From a bacterium (lineage in GTDB: Bacteria > SAR324 > JACQKK01), in assembly GCA_965240465.1 (NCBI GenBank), contig OZ251219.1, forward strand, positions 1,312,001 to 1,376,000: a stretch of DNA of 64,000 bases, written 5' to 3'. The notes beneath the pieces are model-generated. The model ran no database searches and had not been told where the DNA came from. It saw only the letters and a list, made by a program, of their open reading frames with translations. The translations under genes were made by a program, and so were the position numbers. Below, piece by piece: positions 3,955-64,000 of the stretch. Every line of letters starts with the position of its first letter. Position 1 is the stretch's first letter.

Positions 3955-4134
3955 CCTAAAATCCCGACCGCCTGGACCGAACAACTCTGTCCAAACGGAA
4001 GACTGCTCGCACCAGTCGGAAACACACACTCTCAACAACTTTGGCTCTTGAAAAAAATGCCCGATGGAAGCATCAAACACAAAATACTCACCGAAGTTAA
4101 ATTCGTACCGCTGATTTCCCCAACTGAACTATAA
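3952..4134 (+). pseudogene. pcm: 3' fragment of protein-L-isoaspartate O-methyltransferase
   Basis: VPKIPTAWTEQLCPNGRLLAPVG...KILTEVKFVPLI matches the PIMT C-terminal pattern (P..L..QL..GGRL..PVG ... V.FVPL); no start codon or SAM-binding motif. Confidence 0.7.
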
Positions 4135-4163
4135 AAAGCGGGGGCGGGGGGCTGGCGAGCATC

Positions 4164-4192
4164 TTGACAAAGGATAGGGCTAGGCATACTTT
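4164..4192 (+). promoter_or_regulatory. Sigma70-type promoter for the TPR pair
   Basis: TTGACA-17 bp-TACTTT; AGGAG SD at 4218-4222 before ATG 4229. Confidence 0.55.
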
Positions 4193-4228
4193 GTTTGTTA
4201 GGTGACTGTATTACCTCAGGAGAACAGC

Positions 4229-6049
4229 ATGGCAGAAGATAGAAGAAAGCAAGACAGCGGGGTAGAGGACAGCAACAATGTGGTAGATGCTACATATAGA
4301 AAACTTCGTGATGTTTTGTTTGGGGCAGCAGAAAAACCCAGAATCTTTGCTGTGGTAGTTTTTATCGCAGTGGCGGCGTTAGCTGCTTTTGGTGTTTCTG
4401 GAAATTGGGAGTTGGATGAGGTTCTATTGGTAGGTGTCGCATTATTGGGTGTTGGTTTGGTGATGTGTATTTTGTTGTGGTTGTTAAAAGATAAAGATAC
4501 TAGAAAGGATCTTAGGCAGAAGCTAGCAAAATTGTTAGAAACTCAAAAGGGAATAGATAAGGAAATACAAGAATTATTGAACCGAGGGATAAGCCATTAT
4601 GAAAGCCCCGAACTTAAGCTTGCCAAAAGTAGCCTTGAATTAATTCTTTTTCTGTTTGAAGAATTGGAAAATAAACCACAACAAATAGCAGATACTCTTT
4701 TGCAACTAGGGAGTCTTGAATTTTTATCTGGTAATTTCACAACAGCCAAGAAATACCTTGAAAAAGCCCTAGGCTTATTTAATAAAATCGGAGATCGTTC
4801 AAGTAAGGCAAACGCCTTGATTAACCTTGGTGACTTGGCGGTAAGGGTAGGAGATCCAAAAGCCAAGCAACGCCTTGAAAAAGCCTTGGTATTGTATCAG
4901 CAATTAAAAACCCCCTTGGGTGAGGCAAACGCCCTGCGTAGCCTTGGTAAATTGGCGATGAATGTAGGGGAGTATCCAGATGCCAAGCAATACCTTAAAG
5001 AAGCATTAGGCTTATATCAGCAATTAGAAAGCCCCTTGGGTAAGGCACATGCCTTGTCTAACCTTGGTGACTTGGCGATGAGAGAAGGAGAATATCCAGA
5101 TGCCAAGCAACACCTTACAAAAGCCTTGGGCTTGTATCAGCAAATCAGCGATCGTTTGGGTGAAGCAAACGCCTTGACTTACCTTGGTGACTTGGCGATG
5201 AGGAAAGGGGAATATCCAGACGCCAAGCAATACCTTGAAAAAGCCTTGGGCTTGTATCAGCAAGTCAGAGATCGTTTGGGTGAGGCAAACGTCTTGACTT
5301 GCCTCGGTGACTTGGCGATAAAGGTAGGGGAATATCCAGACGCCAAGCAATACCTTGAAGAATCCCTAGTTTCATGTCGGAAAATCAAATATCGCTTGGG
5401 TGAAGCAAATTCCACGAAAAGCCTTGGTGACTTGGCGATGCTTGGAGGAGACAATCAAAAAGCTAAGGATTACTCTGAAAAAGCCCTATTTTTACATCAG
5501 CAATTAAAAGACCCCTTGGGTGAGGCAAACGCCTTGCTTAGCCTTGGTAACTTGGCAAAACTAGAAGGAGAATATCCAAATGCCAAGCAATACCTTGAAA
5601 AAGCCCTAATCTTATATAAGCAATTAAAAGACCCCTTGGGTCAGGCAAACGCCTTGTTTAGCCTTGGTGAATTGGCGATGCTGGTAGGAGAATATCCAAA
5701 AGCCAAGGAATACCTTGAAAAAGCCCTAATCTTATATAAGCAATTAGAAGACTTCTCGAGTGAAGCAAACGCTCTGACTTGCCTTGGTGAATTGATGACG
5801 AATGTAGGAGAATATCCAAAAGCCAAGCAATACCTTGAAGAAGCCCTGGTTTTAAGTCGGAAAATCAAATATCGCTTGGGTGAGGCAAACGCCTTACTTC
5901 GCCTTGGTGAATTGGCGAAGAAGGAAGAATACGAATTAATAGGCAAGCCAACAGCCGAGCGATACCTTAAAGAAGCCCTAGCTATATACAAAGAAATGGG
6001 CATGTCAGATATGGTAAAGCACGCAGAGGACTTGCTTAAAGATTTATAA
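4229..6049 (+). CDS. Membrane-anchored TPR-repeat protein
   Basis: Two N-terminal TM helices, ~11-12 TPR-like repeats (120-bp DNA unit), SD before ATG. Confidence 0.9.
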   Translation: MAEDRRKQDSGVEDSNNVVDATYRKLRDVLFGAAEKPRIFAVVVFIAVAALAAFGVSGNWELDEVLLVGVALLGVGLVMCILLWLLKDKDTRKDLRQKLAKLLETQKGIDKEIQELLNRGISHYESPELKLAKSSLELILFLFEELENKPQQIADTLLQLGSLEFLSGNFTTAKKYLEKALGLFNKIGDRSSKANALINLGDLAVRVGDPKAKQRLEKALVLYQQLKTPLGEANALRSLGKLAMNVGEYPDAKQYLKEALGLYQQLESPLGKAHALSNLGDLAMREGEYPDAKQHLTKALGLYQQISDRLGEANALTYLGDLAMRKGEYPDAKQYLEKALGLYQQVRDRLGEANVLTCLGDLAIKVGEYPDAKQYLEESLVSCRKIKYRLGEANSTKSLGDLAMLGGDNQKAKDYSEKALFLHQQLKDPLGEANALLSLGNLAKLEGEYPNAKQYLEKALILYKQLKDPLGQANALFSLGELAMLVGEYPKAKEYLEKALILYKQLEDFSSEANALTCLGELMTNVGEYPKAKQYLEEALVLSRKIKYRLGEANALLRLGELAKKEEYELIGKPTAERYLKEALAIYKEMGMSDMVKHAEDLLKDL

Positions 6050-6077
6050 ACCCCCCCTTTGAGACTTGGTAATAGCG

Positions 6078-6650
6078 ATGAATAAAAAAGAAAAGCAAGA
6101 AATTGAGGTTCAGGCAAGCACCTTGTTTGAACATGGTAAGTTGGCGATGAAGGAAGGAGAATATCCAAAAGCTAAGCAATGCCTTGAAGAAGCCCTAGCC
6201 TTGTTTAAGCAAATTAAGGATATTCATGGTGAGGCAACCACCTTGATTAGTCTTGGTTACTGTGAGTTGAGGGAAGGAAGCATAACAAAATCCAGGCAAT
6301 ACTCTGAAGAAGCCCTGGGCTTATTTAGGCAATTAGAAGACTATTCTAATGAAGCATACGCCGTGACTTTCCTTGGTGAATTGGCGATGAGGAAAGAATA
6401 CAAATTAATAGACAAGCTAACAGCCAAGCAATACCTTGAAGACTCCCTAGTTTTAAGTCGGCAAATCAAATATCGCTTGGGTGAGGCAGACGCCTTATTT
6501 TTACTTGGTGTCTTGGCGAAGAAGGAAGGATACAAATTAATAGACAAGCAAACAGCCGAGAAATACCTTAAAGAAGCCCGAGAATTATTCAAAGAAATAG
6601 GCATGTCAGATAGGGTAAAGCTCGTAGAGGACTTGCTTAGAAATTTATAA
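6078..6650 (+). CDS. Small soluble TPR-repeat protein
   Basis: Paralog of 1411-1971. Confidence 0.85.
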   Translation: MNKKEKQEIEVQASTLFEHGKLAMKEGEYPKAKQCLEEALALFKQIKDIHGEATTLISLGYCELREGSITKSRQYSEEALGLFRQLEDYSNEAYAVTFLGELAMRKEYKLIDKLTAKQYLEDSLVLSRQIKYRLGEADALFLLGVLAKKEGYKLIDKQTAEKYLKEARELFKEIGMSDRVKLVEDLLRNL

Positions 6651-6688
6651 CCCCCCATCCCCCCCCTTTTGCCTAGCGTAGCCACCCC

Positions 6689-8812
6689 CTACTCTGAGCG
6701 AGTGAGCTTATCAGCTTCGTTCTGCAGCTCTTCCAGTTCCTCCTGCCAGCCAGATGCAAGAATCGGAAACCGACACCAAGTACGAGGGTCAAGATTGTAG
6801 TCATCCACATGAAGAGACGGTGCTAAGCGTTCGCGTTTCCATTGTGAACCCCCCCAAAGCCGAAAGAATTTTGCTATCTGTTCTGCGAGCAGTCGCGGAC
6901 TAACCGATAATCTGGGCCGAACCCGTAAGTACTGCCATATCTGCAAGGGAGACATGCGATTACCTATCGCTGCTTGTAAGATGTCATCCAGTAGCGAGTA
7001 CGGCATGAGGTCGTTTTCGTCTTTTTGTGCTTGCGTCAAGGGACGGAGTTCAGCGGTGGGTGCTTGATTATTGAGGGCTGCTAAAGTTCTGCCCTGTGCC
7101 GAGGGCTTGCTGGGTTTGAAGGGAGGAGAAGTTTCCATCCATTTTAGCCATTGTCGTAGGAAGGTTTTGCTGGCACCTGCGATAGGAGCAAAACCGCAGC
7201 TGGTATCGCCATCGGTGGTGGTGTATCCGACTGCGAGTTCGCTGCGGTTGGAGGTTCCGAGCAGTAGGAAGTTCTTTATATTGGCGATCATCCAGATGCT
7301 CGGGGAGCGTACTCGGGCTTGGATGTTTTGTCGGGCGAGGTCGTCATTTTTCCAGCTGAGTTGGTACTGAAGGGCTTCTTCCACCATGGATTCATATGCA
7401 GCTACCATCGGTTGAGTGTTTAGTTCCAGATGGCAGGCCCCGATATCATCAGCGAGTTCACGTGCTATTTGGCGTGTATTTTCAGAAGAGTTAGCACTGG
7501 CTTGATAGACGGTGAGCAAAAGTTTTCTGGTTAGGGTTCGGATGTCGTTTTCAGATATCGGGGTGCTGGCGGAGGTCGGGAGTGCATGATCCAGTCCTTT
7601 TACATGAGGGAGGGTTTTTTTAATACCTGTTGGTCCTAGTTCTTGGAGTGCGAACCTAATCATTGCAGAGCATAGCATCGCCACCGAGGAGGAATCAGCT
7701 CCGCCGCTGAGGGAGATTAAACAGCCTTGGGTGCGGCTTTTGCGTAGATAATCCCAGATACCCAACGAGACGGCTTGCAGGAATTCTTCTTCTGGCGATA
7801 AATTCACCGCTTGCTTAGCTGCAACGAGTACATTATGGGCTTCATCTAGTTTTGCATGGTGCATATCGGATGGAGGGGCGGGCGGAGAGGGAGCAGGCAG
7901 ATGAGCTGGCGGGGCAACAGATACCATCAGTTTGTGTTTTTGGTTGTAGCGGGGGAGGGGTTTTGCTAGTTGGCGGAGTTTAACATCAACGCATGAGAGG
8001 TGTATAGGATGATAAGAAAAACGAGGGAGTTCAGCCAGCATAGTTCCTTGTGATGCGATCATAACTGAGCCATCGTAGAGGATGTTGCCTGCTTCATTAC
8101 CCAATAGATTGCAGTAGATGTAGATTGCTTGGGCTTGGCGAGACCCCTCCAGCACGAGGTTACGCATGGTTTCATATTTACCGAGTGCAAAGTGACTAGC
8201 ACTAGGATTAATAAGTACATCTAGTTTAGTTCCTCCATCCAGTTGCCGATTTTTACCGGTCCAGGCTTCTTCGCAGATTTCGAATCCTAATCGCAGGTCG
8301 CCTATTTGATAGCTTAGATCGCCAATGGGAATGTTTTTCAGCGGAGTTTCAAGCGAAGTTTCAAGCGGAGTTTCAAGGTTCTCACGCAGCCCCCTACGCC
8401 AAGCCGAGAACCACCTTGGCTCATAATGAACTCCATAACCAGCTAGGGTTCGTTTGGCATTCAAGCCTACCAAGTGTCCGTCCACCAACAGAGCCACCGC
8501 GTTGTACCGACTACCCTCATAGCTTATCGGCAGTCCCACTGTGACTATCAATTGCTGGCTGTGAGGAATTATTTCAAGTAGGCTCTCCCAAGCCGACTGA
8601 ATCACTGCTTGACCGTAAAAGGCATCCTCGCAGCCGTAGCCAGAAATACACAACTCTGGCAAACAGAGCAAATGCACGCCCCTCCTACGAGAGGCAGCCA
8701 TCGCAGACAGGATAGTCCGACGATTGCCCTTCCAGTCCAGGGGCGTCTGATTGAGGGCAGCCCCAGCTACCTTCAATTCGCGTGCTGTTGAGGAGCTCAA
8801 GAACGGATTCAT
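6689..8812 (-). CDS. nadE: Glutamine-dependent NAD+ synthetase
   Basis: Nitrilase-like domain (LPELCISGY, FEICEE) plus synthetase domain (SLSGGADSS, QNIQARVR, PTAELRP). Confidence 0.96.
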   Translation of the reverse strand: MNPFLSSSTARELKVAGAALNQTPLDWKGNRRTILSAMAASRRRGVHLLCLPELCISGYGCEDAFYGQAVIQSAWESLLEIIPHSQQLIVTVGLPISYEGSRYNAVALLVDGHLVGLNAKRTLAGYGVHYEPRWFSAWRRGLRENLETPLETSLETPLKNIPIGDLSYQIGDLRLGFEICEEAWTGKNRQLDGGTKLDVLINPSASHFALGKYETMRNLVLEGSRQAQAIYIYCNLLGNEAGNILYDGSVMIASQGTMLAELPRFSYHPIHLSCVDVKLRQLAKPLPRYNQKHKLMVSVAPPAHLPAPSPPAPPSDMHHAKLDEAHNVLVAAKQAVNLSPEEEFLQAVSLGIWDYLRKSRTQGCLISLSGGADSSSVAMLCSAMIRFALQELGPTGIKKTLPHVKGLDHALPTSASTPISENDIRTLTRKLLLTVYQASANSSENTRQIARELADDIGACHLELNTQPMVAAYESMVEEALQYQLSWKNDDLARQNIQARVRSPSIWMIANIKNFLLLGTSNRSELAVGYTTTDGDTSCGFAPIAGASKTFLRQWLKWMETSPPFKPSKPSAQGRTLAALNNQAPTAELRPLTQAQKDENDLMPYSLLDDILQAAIGNRMSPLQIWQYLRVRPRLSVSPRLLAEQIAKFFRLWGGSQWKRERLAPSLHVDDYNLDPRTWCRFPILASGWQEELEELQNEADKLTRSE

Positions 8813-8908
8813 CACTGGCGATCGCCCCCTCCCCCCCCCTTGTGCTTATTAGTGCTTATTAGGTGCTTATATCGGGTGGTTATTAGGGGTTATGCGAGAA
8901 TGAGCAGA

Positions 8909-10318
8909 TTAAACATCAAAGTATAGATAGAACTCATGCGGAGAGGGGCGACTATCTATTTCATTGATTTCCCTCTTGATCTTGTCATCACAAAATACCT
9001 GAAGAAGATCTTCGGTGAAGGCTCCGCTTTGTAACAGGAATTGAGAATCCTCTTTTAAGGCTACAATAGATTCTCGCAGAGAAGTAGGCATTTTAGGTAC
9101 TTTGCTCAATTCCTCAGGAGAAATTTTATAGATGTCTTTCTCAATGGGTTCACCAGGATGGATATTATTCTGGATCCCATCTAGTCCTGCCAGCATCATG
9201 GCTGAGAACGCCAAATATGGATTGCTGGTGGCATCTGGTACCCTGAATTCTATCCGACATGTCTCGGGCGATTGAAAAACAGGCACGCGGATAGATACCG
9301 AACGATTACGGCTGGAATAAGCTAAGTTAATAGGGGCCTCAAAGCCGGGTATCAGGCGACGATAAGAATTAGTAGATGGATTAGTAAAGGCTGCCAAAGC
9401 ACGAGCATGCTTTAAGATACCTCCGATATAATACAAGGCTAATTTGCTTAATCCCGCATATTGATCGCCAGCAAAGATAGGTTTTTTGCCTTTCCATAAG
9501 CTCTGGTTGGTGTGCAGACCGCTACCATTATCGTTGTAGAGCGGCTTGGGCATGAAAGTAGCCACCTTGCCATGTTGACGGGCTATATTACGCACTATGT
9601 ACTTGTACCAACATAGATTATCAGCAGTTTTCAATAGGGTATCGTAAGTAAAGCTAATCTCATGCTGGGCAGGGGCTACTTCGTGATGGGAACATTCAAC
9701 GCTGATACCGATCTTCTCCATTGCCAAGCTCATCTCATTGCGAATGCCTTGGCAGGTGTCCCCAGGTTTTGCCCGAAGATAACCCTCCTTAGCACGTGTC
9801 TTATAACCCGTATTCCCTTCTGGCTTGGCACTAGACCAATACCCCTCCTCCGATTCCAGATTGTAAGAGCTACCCCCAGTGCCATCGGTGAAAGTAACCC
9901 TATCAAATATGAAAAATTCTGGCTCAGGAGCAAAATACGCGGTGTCAGCTATTCCAGTGGACTTTAAATACTCAGTCGCCTTAAGAGCTACATTGCGAGG
10001 ATCGCGAGAATAGCTCTCGTTAGACCCAGGATCCCTGATGTTACAAATCAACGAAAGAGTGGTACAATCAAAAAACGGGTCCAGCTTAGCGGTGGATGTA
10101 TCGGGGAGCATCAGCATATCGCTGGCTTCAATCCCTTGCCAACCCCGAATGCTGGAAGCATCAAAGGGAATCCCTACCTCAAATTGCTCTGCCTTCAGTT
10201 TATCGGGAGTAATCTGTAAGTGATTCCAAGCACCAACCAAATCACAGAACCTCAGGTCAATAATCTTCACCTGATGATCCTTCACCATCTTTAAGATATC
10301 CGTGGGAGCTCTCACCAT
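8909..10318 (-). CDS. glnA: Glutamine synthetase type I
   Basis: FDASSIRGW, HHEVA, ATFMPKP, NGSGLHTNQS, RRLIPGFEAP, RIEFRVPD. Confidence 0.97.
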   Translation of the reverse strand: MVRAPTDILKMVKDHQVKIIDLRFCDLVGAWNHLQITPDKLKAEQFEVGIPFDASSIRGWQGIEASDMLMLPDTSTAKLDPFFDCTTLSLICNIRDPGSNESYSRDPRNVALKATEYLKSTGIADTAYFAPEPEFFIFDRVTFTDGTGGSSYNLESEEGYWSSAKPEGNTGYKTRAKEGYLRAKPGDTCQGIRNEMSLAMEKIGISVECSHHEVAPAQHEISFTYDTLLKTADNLCWYKYIVRNIARQHGKVATFMPKPLYNDNGSGLHTNQSLWKGKKPIFAGDQYAGLSKLALYYIGGILKHARALAAFTNPSTNSYRRLIPGFEAPINLAYSSRNRSVSIRVPVFQSPETCRIEFRVPDATSNPYLAFSAMMLAGLDGIQNNIHPGEPIEKDIYKISPEELSKVPKMPTSLRESIVALKEDSQFLLQSGAFTEDLLQVFCDDKIKREINEIDSRPSPHEFYLYFDV

Positions 10319-10357
10319 TTTCCCTTTCTATGATCCATGGAAATTATATTAAGCTAA

Positions 10358-11860
10358 TTACAACAAGGCTCGGGGCATTATTTTTTCCATAGCAGGATAT
10401 TTTTTTGCAAACTGGCGGGCTACTCTTGCAAACTCTCGGGCTTGTTCGGGGGCTAATGCCAGCCAGCGATCCTTATCTTCCATGATTTCCTCCACCTCTG
10501 CTTTAGAAAGGGGAAAGCGATCATCCTCGCCTAGTCGCTCAACAAAAGAAGCCTGCTTACCCTCTTTGGCGGTAGCCAGGGCATGTTGTTTGATTAGCTC
10601 ATGCATTGTTTCTCTGCCCCCACCACGTTTGACGGCTTCCGTCAATAGAGTACTGCTAGACATCATGGGAAGCTCCCGCTGAAATTCTTGCCCGATGGCT
10701 TCTTCATTAAAACTCATCTCGTCTAGCACGGTGAGAACAGTCTCCAACAAACCATCAGCCGCCAAACACAAACCCGGCAAAGCCACCCGCCTCACCACCG
10801 AGCAAGATACATCACCTTCATTCCATTGGTCTCCCGCTAGGCGAGTACACATTGCCAGATAACCACTGAGTACGGCATGCAAACCACAAATACGCTCACA
10901 ACTACGGGCATTCATCTTGTGGGGCATGGCTGTTGAGCCCACTTGTTCCTTCTTAAAGCCTTCCAACCAGAGTCCCTCTCCTGCCATCAGGCGAAAAGTA
11001 GTAGCTAATGATGCTAAGGGGGCAGTAAGATTATAGACTAAGGAAGCAAATTCAAAGTCTAGCCCTCGGGGATAGACTTGCCCCACATTATTAAGAACAT
11101 AGCGAAATGATAGTTTTTTAGCTATGTATGCTTCTAGTTCTTTAACATCCTCTTTTCCCTTAGGTAATAGGGAGATCAGATCCAAGCTAGTACCAGAAGC
11201 CCCCTTGATGCCCCGCATGGGGTATGTGCTATGCCATCCTAGTAGTTTTTCACATGCTCGTAGTAGTGGTTCTCCAAAGGATGCCAAGCGTTTGCCTACT
11301 GAGGAGGGCTGGGAAGGCACATTGTGGGTACGGGCTATTAAGGGGGTTTGGGCATGGCGTTCGCTCAAATTTGATAATTGTTCCAGCACTGCTACGGTTT
11401 TATTTACTAGTATGCCAGCAGACCATCTTAGTAGCACCTGTTCTGTATTATCGGTGATGTCACGGCTGGTTAACCCTAAGTGAATTTTTTGATGACCTGC
11501 CAATTCACAAAATACTTCTATCCGAGCCTTTAGATCATGGCGTAAGCGGAATTCACGCTCTTTAATGGATTCTAATGAAATCTCGTCTAATACCTTCTTA
11601 CAGGCATCTATTTCTCCTTGGGTAATGTTCACTCCCAGTTCCTTCTGGGCTTCCATGATAATAATCCAAAGCTCACGCTCCAGTCGGACGCGGAATCTTG
11701 GAGTCCACAGCATTATCATGTTTGGACTAGCATAGCGACTAGCTAAGACATCAGGTACATCACCCCAGAATGCCATATCTTTGGGTCCTTTACCTTCGGG
11801 TCTTTCACCCTCGGATCTTTCATCTTCTGGTCTTTTACCTGAGGAAGATGGAGTATTCAC
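10358..11860 (-). CDS. purB: Adenylosuccinate lyase
   Basis: GSTAMPHKMN signature, RHDLKAR, HLGLTSRD, ARTH; start uncertain (low-complexity N-terminus). Confidence 0.93.
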   Translation of the reverse strand: MNTPSSSGKRPEDERSEGERPEGKGPKDMAFWGDVPDVLASRYASPNMIMLWTPRFRVRLERELWIIIMEAQKELGVNITQGEIDACKKVLDEISLESIKEREFRLRHDLKARIEVFCELAGHQKIHLGLTSRDITDNTEQVLLRWSAGILVNKTVAVLEQLSNLSERHAQTPLIARTHNVPSQPSSVGKRLASFGEPLLRACEKLLGWHSTYPMRGIKGASGTSLDLISLLPKGKEDVKELEAYIAKKLSFRYVLNNVGQVYPRGLDFEFASLVYNLTAPLASLATTFRLMAGEGLWLEGFKKEQVGSTAMPHKMNARSCERICGLHAVLSGYLAMCTRLAGDQWNEGDVSCSVVRRVALPGLCLAADGLLETVLTVLDEMSFNEEAIGQEFQRELPMMSSSTLLTEAVKRGGGRETMHELIKQHALATAKEGKQASFVERLGEDDRFPLSKAEVEEIMEDKDRWLALAPEQAREFARVARQFAKKYPAMEKIMPRALL

Positions 11861-11891
11861 AGGTAGGGTAGAGCGGGGGGGGGGCGGGGGG

Positions 11892-20129: not shown

Positions 20130-20203
<74 letters not shown>

Positions 20204-57342: not shown

Positions 57343-58323
57343 TTAAAGACGACTAGCAACTACGGCTGCTCCCAGCAACCCAGGGCTAGGATGAGCAACA
57401 ACATAAAGAGGAATTTGTTCCATGGTGGTACTAAGGCGTCCCCTATTAGTGAACAAATGGATAAACTGAGGTTGATTGAGTAACGGAACAATGTTGTTAA
57501 CAAAATCACCGCAGAGATAAGCACCTCCTTTAGCAAGGTACTTTAGCACCAGATTAGAGGTTTCAGTAACTAGGGCTTCGCAGAAGAGCTGCAGGGTCTG
57601 TTGAGCAAGGGCATCATCCTGTTTGAGGGCTGCTTGAGTGATGGCAATTCCAGCATCCTGAGAACCCATTCTTGCCCGTGTAGCTGGTGATTCTGGGATG
57701 CCTTCTGCTTGATTGAGAAAATGGTAGATGTTCAGCAAGCCCGGACCAGATAGAACTCGCTCTACCGATACGGGTTTGTATTTACTCCTCAGCCATTGGA
57801 GTAGCCTGTCTTGTTGAGGATTAGTAGGTGCGAAGTCAGTATGTCCGCCTTCGCTGGCGATCACTTGCTCGCCATCAGAGGTAGGAATCACCGCGCTTTG
57901 TCCCAGACCAGTCCCTGGTCCTAGCACCACCTTAGGAAATTGTGGCTGTGGATTGCCAGATTTTAGGGTCAGTAAGTGCTGCGGTTTCAAATAGATACAC
58001 GCCCAAGCCATCGCAGAAAAGTCATTGATAAAGCATGTTTTTGGAATGCCTATGGTTTTACGGGTCAGAGGAGGAGAAATTTGCCAAGGCAAGTTGGCAG
58101 TGATAAAACCCTCTTCGGATACGGGGCCTGCAATGGCAATACAAGCAGCCGTTGGATGCTGATATGAGCATTCTTGCTGGAATTTGTTCACCACTTCCTC
58201 CAGCGAGGCAAACTGAGCAGAAGAATAGGTCTTCAGTAGCACAGCCCGCTCCAGATTATCGGGGTCATAGAGGGCAAAGCGACTATTTGTACCTCCGATG
58301 TCAATTGCAAGGATGCGATTCAT
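57343..58323 (-). CDS. glk: Glucokinase
   Basis: DIGGTNSRFA, IAGPV, INDF, GPGTGLG, SEGGH, ERVLSGPGL. Confidence 0.95.
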   Translation of the reverse strand: MNRILAIDIGGTNSRFALYDPDNLERAVLLKTYSSAQFASLEEVVNKFQQECSYQHPTAACIAIAGPVSEEGFITANLPWQISPPLTRKTIGIPKTCFINDFSAMAWACIYLKPQHLLTLKSGNPQPQFPKVVLGPGTGLGQSAVIPTSDGEQVIASEGGHTDFAPTNPQQDRLLQWLRSKYKPVSVERVLSGPGLLNIYHFLNQAEGIPESPATRARMGSQDAGIAITQAALKQDDALAQQTLQLFCEALVTETSNLVLKYLAKGGAYLCGDFVNNIVPLLNQPQFIHLFTNRGRLSTTMEQIPLYVVAHPSPGLLGAAVVASRL

Positions 58324-58417
58324 AAAACTCAACTAACGAAGGCTTGCGAGAATAGCTAAGAAAGTACTACGATGAAGACGATGCTGAGATATAAGTAAAG
58401 GTGAGCGATAAAATAAC

Positions 58418-58490
58418 GGGCGGTTAGCTCAGCTGGGAGAGCGGCGCCTTTACACGGCGTAGGTCGCAGGTTCAATCCCTGCACCGCCCA
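58418..58490 (+). tRNA. tRNA-Val(TAC)
   Basis: GGGCGGTTAGCTCAGCTGGGAGAGCGGCGCCTTTACACGGCGTAGGTCGCAGGTTCAATCCCTGCACCGCCCA; CCA not encoded. Confidence 0.97.
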
Positions 58491-58550
58491 TTGCTTCCGT
58501 ACCCTACCACTTCTTGCGATTGACTTAGATACGTCATAGCTAGCCAGCAG

Positions 58551-59375
58551 CTAGTATACTCCTGTGGTAGCACCGCCATCCACCGCGACGGCTACCCCTT
58601 GGATGTGGCTAGCCTCAGGAGAGCAAAGAAACAACGCCAGTGAAGCGATGTCCTCAGTACTGCCTAGTCGCTTTAGGTTGTTTTTAGCCATGATTTTGTC
58701 GCGTATTTCCGAGGGTTTCACGTTGTGTATTTTGGCTTTGGCACGAAAAACGTCCCAGATGCGTTTAGTTTCTATCAGTCCAGGATGAATGACATTAACT
58801 AGTACGCCATCACGCTTGCCCCGCCCCGCCAAGCCCTTGGAGAAGTTCGCAAAAGCTGCGTTTATAGCACCACCGATTAAGAATTCAGGATCTGGAGTAC
58901 GGGCAATGCTCCCAATGATGTTTAGAATATTACCCTGAGATTTGCTTAAATCCCGCCACAACAGACGACACAAACGAACAGCCGTATGGAATTTAAGGGC
59001 GAAGCCATCTTGCCAGACATGATCTTCTTGCTTCAAAAAGTCCCCAGGCTGGGAATCCCCAGCTGAATTCACCAATATATCGCAACGACCAAAATTCTTG
59101 AGGGTACTGGCTACCAGAGAGGTACAGCTTTGGGGGTCACGCAGGTCGGCTGCATGCCATAGTACATTAGCTTGAGTTTGCTGTCTTATTTCTTCTGCGG
59201 CATGTCGCAGATTTTTCTCAGAAGAGGCTGCCAGCATTAGGTTAGCTCCTTCTTTGGCAAAGCGTAAGCCGATGCCCTGCCCTATCCCGCGACTGCCGCC
59301 GGTAATCACAGCGATCTTGCCTGCCAACAAGCCCGACTTTTGGGGAACGGAATATTTCTCTTGGTTGCTAGACAT
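58551..59375 (-). CDS. Short-chain dehydrogenase/reductase (atypical active site)
   Basis: TGGSRGIG, DILVNSAG, VIHPG, VDGG; YxxxK replaced by GGAIN. Confidence 0.9.
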   Translation of the reverse strand: MSSNQEKYSVPQKSGLLAGKIAVITGGSRGIGQGIGLRFAKEGANLMLAASSEKNLRHAAEEIRQQTQANVLWHAADLRDPQSCTSLVASTLKNFGRCDILVNSAGDSQPGDFLKQEDHVWQDGFALKFHTAVRLCRLLWRDLSKSQGNILNIIGSIARTPDPEFLIGGAINAAFANFSKGLAGRGKRDGVLVNVIHPGLIETKRIWDVFRAKAKIHNVKPSEIRDKIMAKNNLKRLGSTEDIASLALFLCSPEASHIQGVAVAVDGGATTGVY

Positions 59376-59402
59376 TCTATGAAAGACTATCCGAAAAATT
59401 GG

Positions 59403-60620
59403 CTAAAGCCCAGCCTTGGCATCAAGTGTTTGAACGCTTATTTTACGAGTCTTAAAGACTTTTCCTCCCTTAGTGTATTCAATCAAAACTGGAGTCCGAT
59501 TGCCGTCCCGACATTGTGGGGTAGCCGCGGCACAAAAGCTGATGCTACCCGCAGAAGCTCCTTGATAATTCTTAATTTCAGCGAGGGCATTACGAATAGC
59601 ACGACGATCAGAAGTCAGATTACGGTAGCCTCCTTGGAGTTGAGTACTTTCTAGTGCTTGCTCCACGATTTTTATCAAATCCCAAGTTTGTGCAAGTCCT
59701 TGCTCTGGTGATATTTTGTATTCCTTTTGGACTACCTTAATGAAATTGCGAACTTTTTTGCTCTTATTTTTAATAGAGAACGAAGACGCATAATACGCTC
59801 CCCGAATAGATTGCTTTGCCAATACATGGACTTCTTGCTGAGAAGCCACCGCATTAAACACACGGCGAACCCTCTTAGAAATACCCACCTCATAAGATTG
59901 CAGTAGAATGTCAGCAATTTGTTGTTCTGAGGCAGAAATAATCAATGCATTTGCCCGGGCATTTTTTATTTTCAGCAACTCGGCACGGAAATCAATCGCT
60001 TTGCTATCAACTTGAGCCGTGACTGCAGGGTCCACTTTATAGGTTGCTTTCATGTAATTGATCGTGTCTTGAGCAAATCTCTTTCCCACAGAATCCCTAG
60101 AGTAAATATAAGCCACCTTTTTGCCGATTTTCTTAGCCACATAATCAGCCTGAGCAACCTTGTAAAAACGACTAGAAACAGGTACCCGAAAAATCCAATA
60201 ACTGCCCAATTTGGTGATTCTAGCATCCGTGGATTCTGCAGTAATCTGGGGAGTTTTTCTTTTATCAGTCACTCTCACTATTGGCAGGGTTACCGAAGAA
60301 CAAGATGACCCGATCAACAAGTGTACCTTATCTTGCTCAATTAATTGACGGGCATTGCTGACTCCCTTAGAGGGATTGCATTTGTCATTTAGCAGAATAA
60401 ACTCAATTTTCCTCCCCTGTATGCCACCCCTCTTATTGATAGCAACCACCTCGGATTTAATCATTTCTCCCTGCTTGAAGTCAATATCAGATGCTATCCG
60501 CAGGGTAGCTCCGATCCGAATAGGATCTCCTGGGGCCGCGATTGCGGTCGCCGTGCAACAAACAGATGTTGCCACGCTACTAGCAATCAACATTTTCCTT
60601 AATACATTGCTCAATACCAT
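59403..60620 (-). CDS. ABC transporter substrate-binding protein, branched-chain amino acid (LivJ-like) family
   Basis: Signal peptide, PIRIG, INKRGGIQGRKIE, DKCNP, IGSSCSSVT. Confidence 0.88.
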   Translation of the reverse strand: MVLSNVLRKMLIASSVATSVCCTATAIAAPGDPIRIGATLRIASDIDFKQGEMIKSEVVAINKRGGIQGRKIEFILLNDKCNPSKGVSNARQLIEQDKVHLLIGSSCSSVTLPIVRVTDKRKTPQITAESTDARITKLGSYWIFRVPVSSRFYKVAQADYVAKKIGKKVAYIYSRDSVGKRFAQDTINYMKATYKVDPAVTAQVDSKAIDFRAELLKIKNARANALIISASEQQIADILLQSYEVGISKRVRRVFNAVASQQEVHVLAKQSIRGAYYASSFSIKNKSKKVRNFIKVVQKEYKISPEQGLAQTWDLIKIVEQALESTQLQGGYRNLTSDRRAIRNALAEIKNYQGASAGSISFCAAATPQCRDGNRTPVLIEYTKGGKVFKTRKISVQTLDAKAGL

Positions 60621-60828
60621 AATTAACCTCCTAATGAAAAACTACAAATCTACATTCCTGATAACCAGTTAACTCCCTAAAATATTTGCAAAAAAGCATG
60701 CATATCTAGTGAGAATTACATAATCACGCTCGGCACCATAACATCATTGACATGCCATCACCGTTGATGTGTTGCATATTGGGTAGAAATTAGCAAGTCA
60801 TTTTAAGAGTAATGTTCCACAGCAGGGT

Positions 60829-61362
60829 TTAGGAATCGGCATCTTGGAAGATGCGGCTACCTACAGGGTCTTTTTGATGTTGGTACTTACCTTGATAAGG
60901 GTTTTTAGTGGGTTTATCCATGCGTGCAAATACGAGCTGACAAATACGGCGTCCAGATATAAGGTTGATAGGCTGGCGGTTGGCGTTGAATAGTTCCAAG
61001 GTTAGTTCACCATTGAAGCCAGGGTCTACCCAGCCTGCGTTTTGTACGAACAATCCAATACGTCCAATGGAGCTTCGTCCTTCTACAAAGGCGGTAATAT
61101 TGTGAGGGAGATTTATGCTTTCCATGGTAGTAGCCAGCATAAAAGAGTGTGGTGGGATAACAATCTGCTCGTTCTGAACGGTGGTATATTCAATCGGTTT
61201 ATTGAGGGAGATAACGGCTTGGTTGTCTTCATTGACTTTTAGGAAGGTTGTTCCCAGACGCAAGTCCACCGATGCTGGCTGGATGCAGTGATCTGAAAGG
61301 GGTTTAATTTCCAGCTCACCTGTTTCGAGCAACTCACGGATGGTGCTGTCAGAGAGTATCAT
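60829..61362 (-). CDS. dcd: dCTP deaminase
   Basis: [42 protein letters not shown]. Confidence 0.96.
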
Positions 61363-61442
61363 CAGCGGGATTGCTTTGGGGGTATGGGGGGGGGTATAGG
61401 GGGGTGGGGGGTGGATAAGATTGAGAATTGCGTTAGGTAGAG

Positions 61443-61847
61443 TCAGGGCTTTTTTTCAAGTATTTCCTGTTGTTCCTTGCATCTGATGCACAGGGTAGTT
61501 ACGGGACGTGCCATCAGACGTGGTAGTTCAATCAGTTCACCGCAGGTTTCGCAGTTGCCGAAAGTATTGTCATCTATTCTTTGGATGGCTTCTTGTACTT
61601 TCATGCTTAATTTTCGCTGGCGATCACGAATTCGCAGATTAAGATTCCGTCCCGACTCCATGTTAGCCCGATCAGTTGGGTCTGGGAAGGTGGCAGAGGG
61701 CTTACGCATACCACTGATTTCCATCCGAGCATCTTCTTCAATTTCTTGCAAGGTGTTTTCCAGTTGCGAACGAAGATTTTGCAAAGTTTTTTTCTTAAAG
61801 GAGGTAGGTGCCATAAGAGAAGTAAAAATTGGTTTAGGATAGGTCAT
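61443..61847 (-). CDS. dksA: RNA polymerase-binding protein DksA
   Basis: [33 protein letters not shown] zinc finger. Confidence 0.93.
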
Positions 61848-61959
61848 TCTGTTTGTCCTATAACCTGCTATTTAATACCTATAGCATGCATGATTTCAAA
61901 TTCTCAAATTAAACAGAATAGCACTTATTCTAGTGAATTAGTTCTTGAAGAGCGAGCCC

Positions 61960-61993
61960 AAAAAAAGGGAAACCGAAAATTACGGTCTCCCTA
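61960..61993 (-). terminator. Intrinsic terminator downstream of hup
   Basis: Minus strand AGGGAGACCG-taattt-TCGGTTTCCCT followed by a T run. Confidence 0.75.
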
Positions 61994-62111
61994 AATATTA
62001 GCCATTTTCAAGCCGTACCCGCCTTCAGTTTTAACCTTGGAACAAGTTTTTCTCGTTTGGCATGCTACTAAATGTAGGACTAAACTGGCACGCTTGAAAA
62101 ATACTTGAAAA

Positions 62112-62384
62112 CTAATTAACAGCTTCCTTCAGTTTCTTACCAGCCTTAAAGCGTGGGGATTTAGAAGCTGGGATGTTAATCACAGCCCCTGTCTGAGGGT
62201 TCCGTCCTTTGCGAGCAACACGGTTAGTGACCGAGAACGTTCCAAAACCAACCAAGGTGACAGTATCGCCTTTGGTAAGTCTTTTAGAAATGTTACTAAT
62301 TGCACTCTCCAAAGCCCCAGCAGCCTGGGTTTTAGTTATTTTTGCGTCTTTAGCAATGGCATCAATTAATTCTGTTTTAGTCAT
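62112..62384 (-). CDS. hup: DNA-binding protein HU
   Basis: MTKTELIDAIA, LVGFGTF, RKGRNPQTG, FKAGKKLKEAV; AAGGA SD before ATG 62384. Confidence 0.96.
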   Translation of the reverse strand: MTKTELIDAIAKDAKITKTQAAGALESAISNISKRLTKGDTVTLVGFGTFSVTNRVARKGRNPQTGAVINIPASKSPRFKAGKKLKEAVN

Positions 62385-62674
62385 GGGATATTCCTTTTTG
62401 GTATCAGACAATATAATAGCACCCAAGGCACCATAGTATTTTTTAGTGACACATTGAATACAAAAAAACCTAGAAATTAAATCTAAAAGAAAAACAAATA
62501 AGTCTGTCCTCTTCCGATTGGAGTCACGCTACCAACATTATCTGGTGTTTGCAAAAAAAAAGTTAAAAAAATACTCTTTTTATGGAGAAAATTTAATAAA
62601 TATCTGTTTGTCGTTAATATAACAGCATTTCTTACAAGATTAAAACCAAAGAACTAGCTGTTCACCAAGTGGTT

Positions 62675-63535
62675 CTAAGTAGCCTTAATTGCCGAAATTA
62701 CCCGTACCCGTCCATTTAAGTCTTGGTGAGAGACACAAGAAAATCTTGCTTGTTCTAGCAATTCACAAACAACCTGCTCTTGATTAGGAGCAATCTCCAG
62801 CAATAACTTGGCACCAACCTCTAAACGAGAAGCCCCCTCTTTAATAAGAAGACGATGATATTTCAATCCATCCTGACCTCCGTCCAGAGCCAAAGACGGA
62901 TCATGTTGTACTTCTGGCATCAGCTGAGAAAGCTCATCCGTGGGAATGTAGGGCGGATTGCTAACAATCAAGGAAATACATGCCCGAGGAGCAACTGCCT
63001 GAAAGCCATCCCCCCGAAACAACAACAGCCGATTGCCCCGCGGCTCTAGTAGCTCACTGTGGTATTGCCTGTTCAAACAAGCCAATTGCAAGGCCTCGGC
63101 ACTGAACTCGGTGGCTAACCAACACAAATTACGACACTCAGCACAAACCGCCAAACCTATCGCCGCAGTCCCCGCACCAAACTCCAACACTAAACCAGGG
63201 AGGCTAGCACGGATAACTTGCTCTACCAGGATCTCAGTCTCAGGACGAGGCACTAATGCACCCGCCCCAGTACTCAATTCTAGTCCCCAAAAATGGGCAG
63301 AACCCAAAATATGTGCCAAAGGACGACGCTTCCCACGCTGACGTGCCAACTCACGACAAGCACTGAGCTCGGTCTCTACTAATGGCTGGTCTAATCGCAA
63401 GTATAACTCCAAACGAGGACACCCCAATACATGTGCCAGCATCAACTCTGCTTCCAAACGAGCAGAATCCACCTCCCGACCAGCTAACCAACCACTCAAA
63501 CGACTTAGCAATTCCCCCGCAGTCAATAACGGCAT
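62675..63535 (-). CDS. prmC: Release factor glutamine methyltransferase
   Basis: ARLEAELMLAHVL, LVPRPETE, VSNPPYI, ALDGGQDGL. Confidence 0.95.
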   Translation of the reverse strand: MPLLTAGELLSRLSGWLAGREVDSARLEAELMLAHVLGCPRLELYLRLDQPLVETELSACRELARQRGKRRPLAHILGSAHFWGLELSTGAGALVPRPETEILVEQVIRASLPGLVLEFGAGTAAIGLAVCAECRNLCWLATEFSAEALQLACLNRQYHSELLEPRGNRLLLFRGDGFQAVAPRACISLIVSNPPYIPTDELSQLMPEVQHDPSLALDGGQDGLKYHRLLIKEGASRLEVGAKLLLEIAPNQEQVVCELLEQARFSCVSHQDLNGRVRVISAIKAT

Positions 63536-63621
63536 CTATACAACTTTAATCAGCCAGACATCTCAAATAACGGGTCGCACCAACACAACTGAAAGGCATA
63601 ACATCTATCCTCACAGCAACT

Positions 63622-63879
63622 CTAAAGAAAATTCTGCACCGCCTGTATGAGAAATCTTTCTATCAGCTGGATGGTAAAAAGAGCCGCAATCGGAGCTAGA
63701 TCAAGCCCTCCTATAGCAGGAATAAAACGGAACGGTTCCAGCAATAGCAATGCCAGTCTGTGAACCAAACGAAATCCTTTTTGATGAGGGTCATGCGGCA
63801 CCCATGATAGTACCACATGGGCGATAATCACAATGGATAAGGCTTTAGCAGCAATATCAATGATGTCAATAATAAGCAT
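63622..63879 (-). CDS. yggT: YggT family membrane protein
   Basis: VLSWV, LLEPFR, GGLDLAPI. Confidence 0.9.
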   Translation of the reverse strand: MLIIDIIDIAAKALSIVIIAHVVLSWVPHDPHQKGFRLVHRLALLLLEPFRFIPAIGGLDLAPIAALFTIQLIERFLIQAVQNFL

Positions 63880-64000
63880 TATATCTTTCTATGACCAAAA
63901 ATAGCCGACCCTACGCGGACAATGGTACTACCCTCAGCAATAGCCCACTCAAAGTCGCCCGACATCCCCATGGAGAGATGGCAACATTGGTGAGGCTGGG
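63879..64000 (-). CDS. yggS: PLP homeostasis protein YggS, 3' end only (not in the ORF track)
   Basis: Manual translation gives [32 protein letters not shown]; its TAA overlaps the yggT ATG. Confidence 0.92.

Follow-up and report, generated by a model that had tools for sequence, protein, structure and literature searches.

Strand skew in the window

The stretch of DNA analysed here, hereafter the window, is 64 kb long. In 400-bp segments, its plus strand is divided into kilobase-length blocks with a keto (G/T versus C/A) skew of ±0.2 to 0.4. The initial annotation placed C/A-to-G/T resets between these blocks at 11 intergenic coordinates. The genes and features concerned are listed below. 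For the resets, keto, GC and TA are jumps in plus-strand skew across the site; GC4 skew and C4 refer to fourfold-degenerate sites.

1..64000: whole-window sawtooth in plus-strand G-versus-C skew, made of transcription-unit gradients (sense strand relatively G-rich at 5' ends, C-rich at 3' ends)
4026..4201: reset near 4140, divergent gap of 176 bp; keto +0.24, GC +0.50, TA +0.06
8816..8908: reset near 8840, tandem minus/minus junction, gap of 93 bp; keto +0.13, GC +0.27, TA +0.01
8842-8887: short tandem repeat inside the junction near 8840, from a repeat search
11861..11891: reset near 11870, tandem minus/minus junction, gap of 31 bp; keto +0.11, GC +0.26, TA -0.01
11892..13877, minus strand: aminotransferase and dephospho-CoA kinase genes (family matches); sense GC4 skew -0.57 and -0.70, C4 0.42 and 0.46
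14048..15385, plus strand: pyridine-nucleotide disulphide oxidoreductase gene (family matches), 'gor' in the initial annotation; sense GC4 skew by halves +0.06, then -0.34
15395..15800: T-rich tandem array, 27-bp period, 14.6 copies, source of the reset near 15400; GC jump -0.04, TA jump +0.47
16719..17672, plus strand: C-rich repeat ORF with CCCGCTCCC-type units, no family match; GC skew down to -0.66, repeats at 17230-17464
22059..22150: reset near 22060, tandem plus/plus junction, gap of 92 bp; keto +0.19, GC +0.38, TA +0.06
28307..29755, minus strand: glutamyl-tRNA synthetase gene (family match); strong within-gene gradient, sense GC4 skew +0.32, then -0.36
29756..29972: reset near 29800, divergent gap of 217 bp; keto +0.23, GC +0.36, TA +0.12
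29973..45161, plus strand: five GLUG-motif repeat-protein genes (family matches); acidic repeats that are C/A-rich, followed by GLUG repeats that are G/T-rich
45162..45173: reset near 45170, convergent junction, gap of 12 bp; keto -0.07, GC +0.12, third-position GC jump +0.76
49118..49200: reset near 49160, tandem minus/minus junction, gap of 83 bp; keto +0.34, GC +0.22, TA +0.44; tandem repeats at 49157-49266
54447..54627: reset near 54500, divergent gap of 181 bp, flanked by RCC1-repeat genes on both sides (family matches); keto +0.22, GC +0.35, TA +0.12
60621..60828: reset near 60780, tandem minus/minus junction, gap of 208 bp; keto +0.22, GC +0.40, TA +0.09

The sawtooth is real. It is not clean, and it is other than what the initial annotation described. 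All-site keto skew jumps upwards at 10 of the 11 coordinates (600 bp left versus right), the sole exception being the junction near 45170, and all 11 fall in gene junctions. The mean keto jump is +0.22, compared with 0.00 ± 0.04 when 11 positions are drawn at random 5000 times; the sites were picked by eye, so a P value for these up-jumps is post hoc. The pattern persists at synonymous sites, where it is even stronger. Averaged over all 34 window junctions with a gap above 40 bp, keto skew jumps by just +0.04 (19 positive), and sharp down-steps of comparable size also occur, such as -0.45 at 26350.

The description of the sawtooth as G/T versus C/A does not hold at fourfold-degenerate sites. 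The signal there is G versus C alone, and neither A nor T changes along genes. GC and TA skews do not co-vary at these sites (r = -0.20 in the window and -0.12 genome-wide), whereas they do at all sites (r = +0.33 and +0.38, respectively). The T/A part is therefore attributed to amino-acid composition. Large TA jumps are found only at the resets near 15400 and 49160, both of which adjoin tandem-repeat arrays. The first is a TA-skew jump from the array, not a G/C jump, and the ORF listed within this array at 15471-15971, with no family match, is probably not a gene. The deepest C/A trough is the C-rich repeat ORF, immediately before the reset near 17740 (GC jump +0.90).

Skew also changes within genes. 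Of the 30 genes in the window that reach 750 bp, 20 are lower in the second half than in the first. In 21 window genes between 900 and 3000 bp long, sense GC4 skew by fifths is -0.063, -0.127, -0.241, -0.352 and -0.286. The passage of 'gor' from G/T-rich to C/A-rich, noted at first reading, is such a within-gene gradient. The sense strand of the aminotransferase and dephospho-CoA kinase genes is C-rich throughout, so the plus strand is G-rich here and forms the G/T-rich block reported earlier. The GLUG genes run opposite to the general gradient, four of five rising from first to second half, because of their amino-acid and domain composition: codon positions 1 and 2 change with the domains.

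A gradient along transcription units

Genome-wide, sense GC4 skew falls from -0.036 at the 5' end to -0.351 at the 3' end of the 683 genes that are 900 bp or longer. Gene calls were the longest non-overlapping ORFs, not gene-finder output, and transcription units were deduced purely from gene spacing. Along the sense strand of the same 683 genes G4 declines from 0.214 to 0.150 while C4 increases from 0.230 to 0.311, with A4 and T4 flat. The second half is lower in 558 of 823 genes. The G-to-C shift is found in all eight fourfold codon families, both in this genome (G000) and in a sister species (G001). Normalising by codon family, or by codon family and next base together, does not remove the gradient. 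The gradient is 1 to 2 kb long and was absent from the 21 genes longer than 3.5 kb.

Codon positions 1 and 2 shift as well, with sizes relative to fourfold sites of about 0.40 : 0.27 : 1. Twofold purine sites lose G along genes (0.475 to 0.349). At twofold pyrimidine sites C/(C+T) is almost constant at 0.37 to 0.38, reaching 0.415 in the last tenth only. Sense GC skew is +0.05 to +0.13 in the 5' untranslated flanks. In the 3' flanks, which have little length and perhaps consist largely of terminator hairpins, it is about -0.05 to +0.03, and the gene-end C excess ends at the stop codon.

In the plus-strand frame the slope is negative for either orientation: -0.131 ± 0.016 per kb for plus genes and -0.114 ± 0.014 per kb for minus genes. 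The sense-strand fall is thus a plus-strand fall whichever way a gene points, and boundaries resemble origin-like C/A-to-G/T flips. The skew had been considered independent of gene direction. Both orientations share its polarity by symmetry, but the sawtooth is not independent of genes: it is anchored on transcription units. Plus-frame GC4 skew changes from left to right of gene junctions as follows.

Tandem plus/plus (n=132): -0.34 to -0.06
Tandem minus/minus (n=143): +0.06 to +0.32
Convergent (n=56): -0.40 to +0.33
Divergent (n=60): -0.08 to -0.05

These values correspond to an orientation-independent up-jump of about +0.3 per transcription-unit boundary, plus a constant sense offset of about -0.19. 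Skew resets at transcription-unit boundaries and barely at tight operon junctions. In G000 the jumps are +0.08, +0.07 and +0.10 (± 0.06 to 0.07) for gaps of at most 40 bp and +0.27 ± 0.05 for gaps of 41 to 200 bp. The sister species behaves likewise, with -0.06 ± 0.08 at tight (n=25) and +0.34 ± 0.06 at wide junctions (n=61). In combination, replication arm, strand and position in the transcription unit account for only about 36% of the explainable local variance in GC4 skew. The remainder is transcription-unit-specific: residuals correlate with r = 0.59 within units, and 0.15 and 0.045 across units.

Replication origin

The chromosome has one ordinary origin. Cumulative GC skew reaches a single minimum, at 607.8 kb, and a single maximum, at 1562 kb, and the sole dnaA gene, at 605.6 kb, coincides with the minimum. 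The ordinary replication skew, which is mutational, is about ±0.11 at fourfold sites. Like the gradient, it involves G and C alone (TA half-difference 0.007 to 0.027), and its codon-position ratio of 0.41 : 0.21 : 1 is close to that of the gradient. The gene check suggested by the initial annotation found rnhA and priA, along with rnhB. A true recG was not found in any of the five genomes tested, three of which lack the gradient.

Distribution and conservation of the gradient

The source bacterium is of a small-genome, marine type, and its sister species G001 (same genus, independent closed genome) also carries the gradient. The change in GC4 skew from the first to the last fifth of genes is given below for these two genomes and five relatives.

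G000: -0.303 ± 0.020
G001: -0.373 ± 0.035
G008: -0.019
G009: +0.042
G004: -0.031
G019: -0.019
G024: +0.026

The gradient is thus found in both genomes of the genus and in none of the five sampled relatives. A set of 529 genes from diverse bacteria, taken from fetched loci of at least 8 kb, likewise gives a flat profile. Among genes, GC4 skew has a standard deviation of 0.30 in G000 and 0.27 in G001, versus 0.09 to 0.11 in three relatives of the same family. The 15 families looked at revealed no repair or transcription factor that the genus has lost in common.

Gene-specific skew persists between orthologues, even after a flip of replication orientation. The correlation of GC4 skew between G000 and G001 is 0.63 (157 pairs); it is 0.64 for flipped (17 pairs) and 0.67 for unflipped orthologues (79 pairs). 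Within-gene quartile residuals are conserved as well (r = 0.31, P = 1e-9; permuted partners 0.00 ± 0.06).

Possible causes of the sawtooth

The data show, with a confidence of roughly 0.9, that the sawtooth is the sum of replication skew, a sense-strand offset, amino-acid composition and a genus-specific transcription-unit gradient. The first component is the ordinary two-replichore skew from one dnaA-linked origin, and the second the usual excess of C over G at silent sites of the sense strand. Amino-acid composition supplies the T/A part. In the gradient, sense G about equals C at the 5' end of a transcription unit, and C far exceeds G at its 3' end.

For the gradient and the threefold-inflated gene-specific skew, we tentatively favour, at odds just short of even, a transcription-linked, strand-asymmetric bias in mutation or repair. 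This bias would be of a G-to-C exchange type, with its strength set by position within the transcription unit, and would have arisen in the ancestor of the reduced-genome genus. Codon positions 1 and 2 follow in replication-skew proportion, which favours a nucleotide-level mutation bias over a codon-level effect. The halt of the strong C excess at the stop codon counts against mutation, with the caveat that the 3' flanks are short and perhaps hairpin-dominated. So does the lack of a shared factor loss among the 15 families. The twofold pyrimidine and purine sites indicate that no single simple mutation type fits every site class. Conservation of fine-scale skew across saturated silent sites is also expected under selection.

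It is possible, if rather doubtful, that selection, acting on transcripts or on the process of transcription, keeps 5' parts C-poor relative to G and distal parts C-rich and G-poor. Weaker distal RNA structure or R-loop stability may be selected; so may an elongation ramp linked to NTP pools, which McLean and Tirosh proposed as an adaptive explanation in yeasts. Rho may also be kept from loading early and allowed to load late. Known Rho loading sites are C-rich and G-poor, and the effect here is similarly G/C-specific, with A and T untouched. However, the gradient of 1 to 2 kb is much longer than such a site. Rho is present, as it is in relatives that have no gradient. Tight operon junctions, where termination is unwanted, show no reset. 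The strong skew ends at the stop codon, yet the 3' untranslated flanks, the expected place for Rho loading, have no C excess. Gene levels and within-gene patterns are conserved despite saturated silent sites and inversions, in line with selection. Against it, C/(C+T) hardly rises at twofold sites, and amino-acid-changing positions shift in the proportion that mutation bias predicts.

Translational selection is improbable. It would act along each frame, with G-ending codons increasingly avoided and C-ending ones preferred, either for costlier late errors or as a codon ramp. G-ending codons do drop in the fourfold and twofold purine classes, and on the 3' side the bias is limited to coding sequence. 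Efficient yeast codons are reported to be C-rich and depleted at 5' ends (McLean and Tirosh). However, the gradient crosses tight operon junctions without a restart at each start codon (+0.07 to +0.10 versus +0.27; in G001 -0.06 versus +0.34), which already weakens this reading. All fourfold families shift alike, codon positions 1 and 2 shift too, twofold C/(C+T) is flat, and the ribosomal-protein cluster has no extreme values.

The initial annotation had proposed many dispersed bidirectional initiation sites in intergenic regions, replacing one oriC. We regard this as very unlikely. Its polarity argument is formally correct, since a C/A-to-G/T switch is what a bidirectional origin produces. 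The sawtooth resembles replication skew in size (±0.15) and in its G/C-only type, the leading strand holds only 50% of genes, and true RecG is absent. RecG is also missing from the three tested relatives without a gradient, however, and rnhA, rnhB and priA are present. Cumulative skew forms a single V with dnaA at its minimum, and the period of the sawtooth is the transcription unit, with tight junctions lacking a reset. Skew also stays with a gene after inversion, which is unexpected for a fixed chromosomal initiation site. About a thousand origins per 1.6 Mb would have no known precedent. The fallback offered with this proposal, other strand-asymmetric mutational foci, is compatible with the mutation or repair bias favoured here; the dispersed-initiation part of the proposal is unsupported. 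The sawtooth mimics many replication origins and yet is tied to genes.

An artefact of crude gene calling, assembly or amino-acid composition is the least credible: the gene calls are longest non-overlapping ORFs, some listed ORFs are repeat arrays and the all-site keto coupling is truly compositional, but the same pipeline is flat in the five relatives and the 529 diverse genes, the gradient withstands codon-family and next-base normalisation, and G001 reproduces it.

Comparison with known systems

In mammalian DNA, a skew sawtooth lies between replication origins. The G-over-C up-jump at a boundary and the gradual fall after it are the same here, as are the G/C-only type and a size similar to this genome's own replication skew. 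Unlike origin jumps, the boundaries here are transcription-unit ends, the single dnaA-linked origin lies elsewhere in the genome, and an inverted gene takes its skew along. In classical bacterial transcription asymmetry, C-to-T deamination of the non-template strand gives a sense G+T excess. It is likewise tied to the transcribed strand, but here silent-site T and A are uninvolved and the sign changes along the unit.

The use of replication-associated, origin-type skew jumps in bacteria is stated in PMC3269016, where GC skew near transcription starts in plants and fungi is also cited. Such skew is described at human CpG-island promoters in PMC3787257. As here, G exceeds C on the non-template strand, most strongly near the 5' end, and the excess decays over about 1 to 2 kb; unlike here, it is described for RNA polymerase II genes. 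Our literature search found no description of start-proximal GC skew for a bacterial transcription unit.

The nearest published analogue is the gradient of yeasts and other fungi, with opposite polarity. In both, GC skew shifts progressively over the length of a gene and AT skew stays constant, the effect reaches fourfold sites as well as amino-acid usage, and strength varies by lineage. In both, C-to-T deamination is considered an unlikely cause, and mutational and adaptive explanations are both entertained. In fungal genes the bias is towards C at the 5' end and towards G at the 3' end; the reverse holds in this bacterium, where the unit is an operon-like transcription unit. Fungal skew reaches promoters and 3' UTRs, whereas here the 5' flanks follow and the 3' flanks do not. 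Degenerate and non-degenerate positions are about equally affected in fungi, whereas in this bacterium fourfold sites are affected about 2.5 to 4 times more strongly.

Strand asymmetry in the window

The strand asymmetry of this genome (G000) is specific to G and C, anchored to transcription units, persistent, bound to individual genes and confined to one genus. G000 is a single contig of 1,599,138 bp with 45% G+C (45.4%, the lowest of the genome set compared). Compared with named public genomes, its glutamine synthetase reaches no more than 58% identity. The gene set consists of the longest non-overlapping ORFs, 1265 genes covering 89% of the genome. By family, the window contains genes for NAD synthase, glnA, an adenylosuccinate-lyase-like protein, an aminotransferase, coaE and a glutathione-reductase-like oxidoreductase, together with scpA, folP, gltX, an alternative complex III cluster and five GLUG-repeat genes. 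Repetitive and neighboring features in the window are as follows.

4-6650: four TPR_12 repeat genes built from 120-bp units, flanking a DNA methylase gene at 1990-3528
22151-22591: SocA/Panacea antitoxin-domain gene, just upstream of the next array
23049-25355 (genes 23021-25339): tandem array, period 479 bp, 4.9 copies, 83% matches; its five paralogous ORFs each encode about 136 to 142 aa, with a weak PD-(D/E)XK_5 match in the first
29973-45161: a row of five GLUG-motif genes (639 to 1435 aa) whose long internal repeats measure 408 to 417 bp and are 96 to 97% identical
53286-56157: two divergent RCC1-repeat (beta-propeller) genes adjoining a pentapeptide-repeat gene

The initial annotation described kilobase-scale blocks of alternating keto skew (G/T versus C/A) on the + strand, with abrupt resets. 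Such blocks are present, and the skew swings between about -0.4 and +0.35 in 400-bp windows. At 10 of the 11 listed resets (4140, 8840, 11870, 15400, 17740, 22060, 29800, 45170, 49160, 54500 and 60780) skew of the leading-strand type jumps up, the polarity of an origin. The mean jump is +0.22, versus 0.00 ± 0.04 at random positions; one reset shows no up-jump. The resets at 15400 and 49160 are mainly TA jumps beside tandem-repeat arrays. The sawtooth in the window is not clean. All 34 window junctions with gaps above 40 bp together average a keto jump of +0.04, and 19 of them jump upward. Abrupt down-steps of comparable size also occur. The GLUG genes, between 30 and 45 kb, reverse course from their domain make-up, and their fourfold sites are strongly pyrimidine-rich (C4 0.34 to 0.47, G4 0.08 to 0.11). 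Overall, the observation is confirmed in part.

Third and fourfold-degenerate positions swing more widely than first and second positions do. Loss at synonymous sites had been named as the outcome that would discredit the pattern. The T/A part does vanish there, while the G/C part survives and is stronger, so that objection fails for G/C. At fourfold sites, GC and TA skew correlate with r = -0.20 in the window and -0.12 genome-wide (bins), and with +0.09 among genes. At all sites they are coupled (r = +0.33 in the window, +0.38 genome-wide). The impression of G/T versus C/A blocks is therefore a silent-site G/C effect combined with amino-acid composition.

The gradient along transcription units

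Composition at fourfold sites changes along genes. On the sense strand, G falls and C rises from 5’ to 3’. A and T do not change, and TA skew at these sites (TA4) stays at 0.11 to 0.15.

Fourfold-site composition and GC skew (GC4) on the sense strand of 683 genes of at least 900 bp in G000
Measure; first tenth; last tenth
G4; 0.214; 0.150
C4; 0.230; 0.311
A4; 0.247; 0.238
T4; 0.309; 0.301
GC4 skew; -0.036; -0.351

In the + frame, the slope is -0.131 ± 0.016 per kb for + genes and -0.114 ± 0.014 per kb for - genes. A 5’ to 3’ fall on the sense strand of a - gene is also a fall of + strand skew along + coordinates, which makes the pattern look independent of gene direction, as the initial annotation had taken it to be. 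On average, sense-strand skew falls 5’ to 3’ in genes of both orientations.

The shift from G to C occurs in all eight fourfold codon families in G000 and in its sister species of the same genus (G001), and not in G008 of the same family. The gradient runs from +0.125 to -0.117 after normalisation by codon family, and from +0.111 to -0.103 after normalisation by family and next base. Next-base context is itself pronounced genome-wide: at fourfold sites holding G or C, the G share is 0.59 when the next base is G, 0.41 when it is C and 0.26 to 0.29 when it is T or A. The shift from G to C extends to first and second codon positions, with relative sizes of 0.40 : 0.27 : 1. G at twofold purine sites drops from 0.475 to 0.349, and twofold pyrimidine sites hardly move. 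Sense GC skew is +0.05 to +0.13 in 5’ flanks and about 0 in 3’ flanks.

Skew at gene boundaries depends on the arrangement of the neighboring genes. Genome-wide, GC4 skew jumps up by +0.27 at tandem and by +0.73 at convergent junctions.

GC4 skew in the + frame on either side of gene junctions in G000
Junction; n; left; right
Tandem, both +; 132; -0.34; -0.06
Tandem, both -; 143; +0.06; +0.32
Convergent; 56; -0.40; +0.33
Divergent; 60; -0.08; -0.05

These values are arithmetically equal to an up-jump of about +0.3 per boundary combined with a sense-strand offset fixed at about -0.19. From junction classes alone, a gene gradient and an origin-like boundary are therefore indistinguishable. Tandem junctions with an overlap or a gap of at most 40 bp jump by +0.07 to +0.10 (± 0.06 to 0.07; 41, 33 and 49 pairs), those with a gap of 41 to 200 bp by +0.27 ± 0.05 (93 and 97 pairs). 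In the closed genome of G001, the jump is -0.06 ± 0.08 at tight (25 pairs) and +0.34 ± 0.06 at wide junctions (61 pairs). Neither class shows anything in G008 or G009, also of the family. The anchor is the transcription unit, neither the reading frame nor the chromosomal place. Units of 0.9 to 4 kb start at about 0 and end at about -0.3 to -0.4. Per-gene slopes are -0.20 to -0.30 per kb for genes up to 2.2 kb, and the total drop plateaus at about -0.45. The gradient is flat in the 21 genes longer than 3.5 kb.

Distribution among related genomes

One pipeline was applied to all genomes, and the drop was taken as the change in GC4 skew from the first to the last fifth of genes.

Drop in GC4 skew along genes
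Genome; relation; drop
G000; own genome; -0.303 ± 0.020
G001; same genus; -0.373 ± 0.035
G008; same family; -0.019
G009; same family; +0.042
G004; same family; -0.031
G019; same order; -0.019
G024; same order; +0.026

Flat profiles were likewise obtained for 529 genes of diverse bacteria, taken from loci of at least 8 kb. The gradient arose within one family: both genomes of the genus have it and all three sampled genomes of its other genera lack it. Genomes of the genus measure 1.6 to 1.7 Mb, compared to 2.8 to 4.5 Mb in the sampled family members.

Gene-specific skew and its conservation

Genes also differ strongly from one another. The noise-corrected standard deviation of GC4 skew among genes is 0.30 in G000 and 0.27 in G001, versus 0.09 to 0.11 in G008, G009 and G004 (family-normalised, 0.276 and 0.257 versus 0.076 and 0.087). 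Only about 36% of the local variance that can be explained is due to replication arm, strand and unit position. The residual skew correlates at 0.59 within units; across units it correlates at 0.15 on the same strand and 0.045 on opposite strands.

These gene-specific values are conserved. In 157 pairs of G000 and G001 orthologues (median amino-acid identity 63%), GC4 skew correlates with r = 0.63. The correlation is 0.64 in 17 pairs with flipped replication orientation and 0.67 in 79 unflipped pairs; the flipped pairs show a leading-minus-lagging difference of +0.14 ± 0.05. Quartile deviations within genes are kept as well (r = 0.31, P = 1e-9, family-normalised; 0.00 ± 0.06 with permuted partners). 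Recent inversions are rejected as a source of the blocks, since intact genes contain skew changes and a gene keeps its skew once inverted. Protein hydrophobicity correlates with gene skew in G000 (r = 0.36) and only at 0.06 in G001, and is therefore not a common cause. In the ribosomal-protein cluster, used as an expression proxy, skew is nowhere extreme and follows no clear trend, which makes the proxy uninformative. The 20 most extreme genes have no clear functional theme in common; the G-rich ones include several membrane proteins.

Relation to replication

The initial annotation had proposed many dispersed initiation sites or other strand-asymmetric foci. The multi-origin part is not supported, and the idea of foci survives in a gene-anchored form. 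Cumulative GC skew in G000 is V-shaped, with its only minimum at 607,845 and its only maximum at 1,562,156. The sole dnaA (605,584-606,018) lies at the minimum, the ordinary sign of a single origin. Replication contributes a half-difference between arms of ±0.11 at fourfold sites and of ±0.07 in intergenic DNA. This effect is confined to G and C (TA 0.007 to 0.027), and its codon-position ratio is 0.41 : 0.21 : 1. Individual genes have local sense GC4 skews of up to ±0.87. Leading and lagging genes both carry the gradient, which runs from 0.139 to -0.215 in the former (316 genes) and from -0.169 to -0.417 in the latter (325 genes). The skew does not belong to a chromosomal place, as tight operon junctions barely reset it and it moves with the gene. 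Only 50.0% of 1223 called genes are on the leading strand, an unusually low share given the clear replication skew.

Possible causes

We favor a transcription-linked mutation or repair bias, which would write the gradient along each unit (probability roughly 0.45 to 0.5). The equal penetrance into amino-acid positions, the G/C-only type shared with replication skew and the matching 5’ flanks all point to mutation.

Selection on the transcript could also maintain the gradient, and we regard this as possible, if somewhat unlikely. It is consistent with the end of the skew at the stop codon, the flat twofold pyrimidine sites and the fine-scale conservation between species. Rho loading would call for C-rich, G-poor RNA ahead of the termination point, untranslated tail included; C greatly exceeds G over the final 300 to 700 bp of coding sequence, but skew is about 0 right after the stop codon. 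Rho is present in G000. Simple terminator and promoter scans in G000, G001 and G008 had too low a specificity to compare termination modes.

Rather improbable is a local strand process that starts from transcription-unit boundaries and outweighs chromosome replication in shaping strand composition. Synthesis or repair tracts primed at promoters or R-loops, extending about 1 to 2 kb outward with a leading-strand-type excess of G over C, would be an example. Such a process, if real, would amount to a new, heritable regime of mutation in a bacterium, close to the idea in the initial annotation yet without true replication origins.

Translational selection, as a codon ramp or an error-cost gradient, is unlikely, given that tight junctions show no restart in G000 and G001 and that shifts at first and second codon positions take the effect beyond synonymous choice. 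Dispersed bidirectional replication origins are very unlikely as makers of the sawtooth: the up-jumps have the expected sign, but there is one cumulative-skew minimum with dnaA at it, tight operon junctions hardly reset, orthologues keep their sense-strand skew when replication orientation flips, and residual skew is shared within units and not across units on opposite strands.

Comparison with known asymmetries

The nearest published case is the intragenic GC-skew gradient of unicellular fungi, in which AT skew is uniform and the cause is unsettled (McLean and Tirosh, 2011; PMC3315797). In both cases, GC skew changes gradually from 5’ to 3’ (here from -0.036 to -0.351) with AT skew uniform, and fourfold sites as well as amino-acid-changing positions are affected. 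The polarity is opposite, the fungal genes being C-biased at the 5’ end and G-biased at the 3’ end (PMC3315797). The fungal gradient is described as reaching non-coding flanks on both sides; here 5’ flanks carry +0.05 to +0.13 and 3’ flanks about 0. Deamination-type transcription asymmetry also differs: the coupled excess of G over C and T over A at silent sites is absent, with T4 and A4 flat. No description of a bacterial gradient of this kind was found in the literature searched, mostly outside subscription journals, which does not prove its absence.

Strand skew is routinely taken as a footprint of replication, and its shift points serve to locate transcription starts in eukaryotes and replication origins in prokaryotes (PMC3269016). 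Here the gene-anchored G/C asymmetry is stronger. In such lineages, origin prediction, estimates of expression or growth rate from codon usage, and tests of selection at silent sites could be misled. The trait is upheld at each gene across saturated divergence and extends into amino-acid usage. With the gradient in two closed genomes and not in close relatives, the long-standing question of whether mutation or selection causes intragenic GC-skew gradients becomes directly testable.

Tandem repeats and repair genes

Several resets had been reported to coincide with tandem repeats. Genome-wide, a repeat in the gap is not needed for the jump. Tandem junctions jump by +0.32 ± 0.05 with a repeat (100) and +0.22 ± 0.03 without (218), convergent junctions by +0.71 and +0.81, respectively. 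Intragenic repeats cause no reset: they show -0.04 ± 0.05, versus -0.075 ± 0.044 at matched points in the same genes. Repeat density is rejected as a cause as well, as G001 has the gradient with an ordinary 20 arrays per 100 kb. The repeat density of G000 itself is very high, at 50 arrays per 100 kb and 6.9% of bases, whereas six relatives have 11 to 29 per 100 kb at the same settings; window arrays at 15395-15800 and 16365-16543 are examples.

Among 15 families searched in G000, G001, G008, G009 and G004, a candidate list and not a full comparison, no gene loss shared within the genus was found. DnaA, Rho, Mfd, RNase HI, MutS, MutL, Fpg, UDG, PriA, RNase HII, NDK and UvrA are found in all five genomes. 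The genes rnhA and priA, which had been suggested for checking, are present, as is rnhB. For RecG, also suggested, no match reaches the cut-off in any of the five, whether they have the gradient or not. Only G000 lacks MutY, where the best match is Nth-like (C1:626580-627029, 59.7 bits against a cut-off of 286.5), and is present in the other four. A Y-family polymerase is missing in G000, G001 and the gradient-free G009.

Two further arrangements were seen in these families. Downstream of the intact rnhA (255696-256100), G000:C1:261288-271494 contains four extra partial RNase H matches, spaced 3 to 6.5 kb apart. Each covers only the C-terminal 40 residues with a stop codon, and the series looks like a repeated segment carrying the end of the gene. 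The UvrA matches at G000:C1:562934-568432 and at the matching places in G001, G008 and G009 fall within a single open frame of about 1870 to 2030 aa that contains two UvrA-length matches, which suggests a tandem-fused double UvrA in this family.
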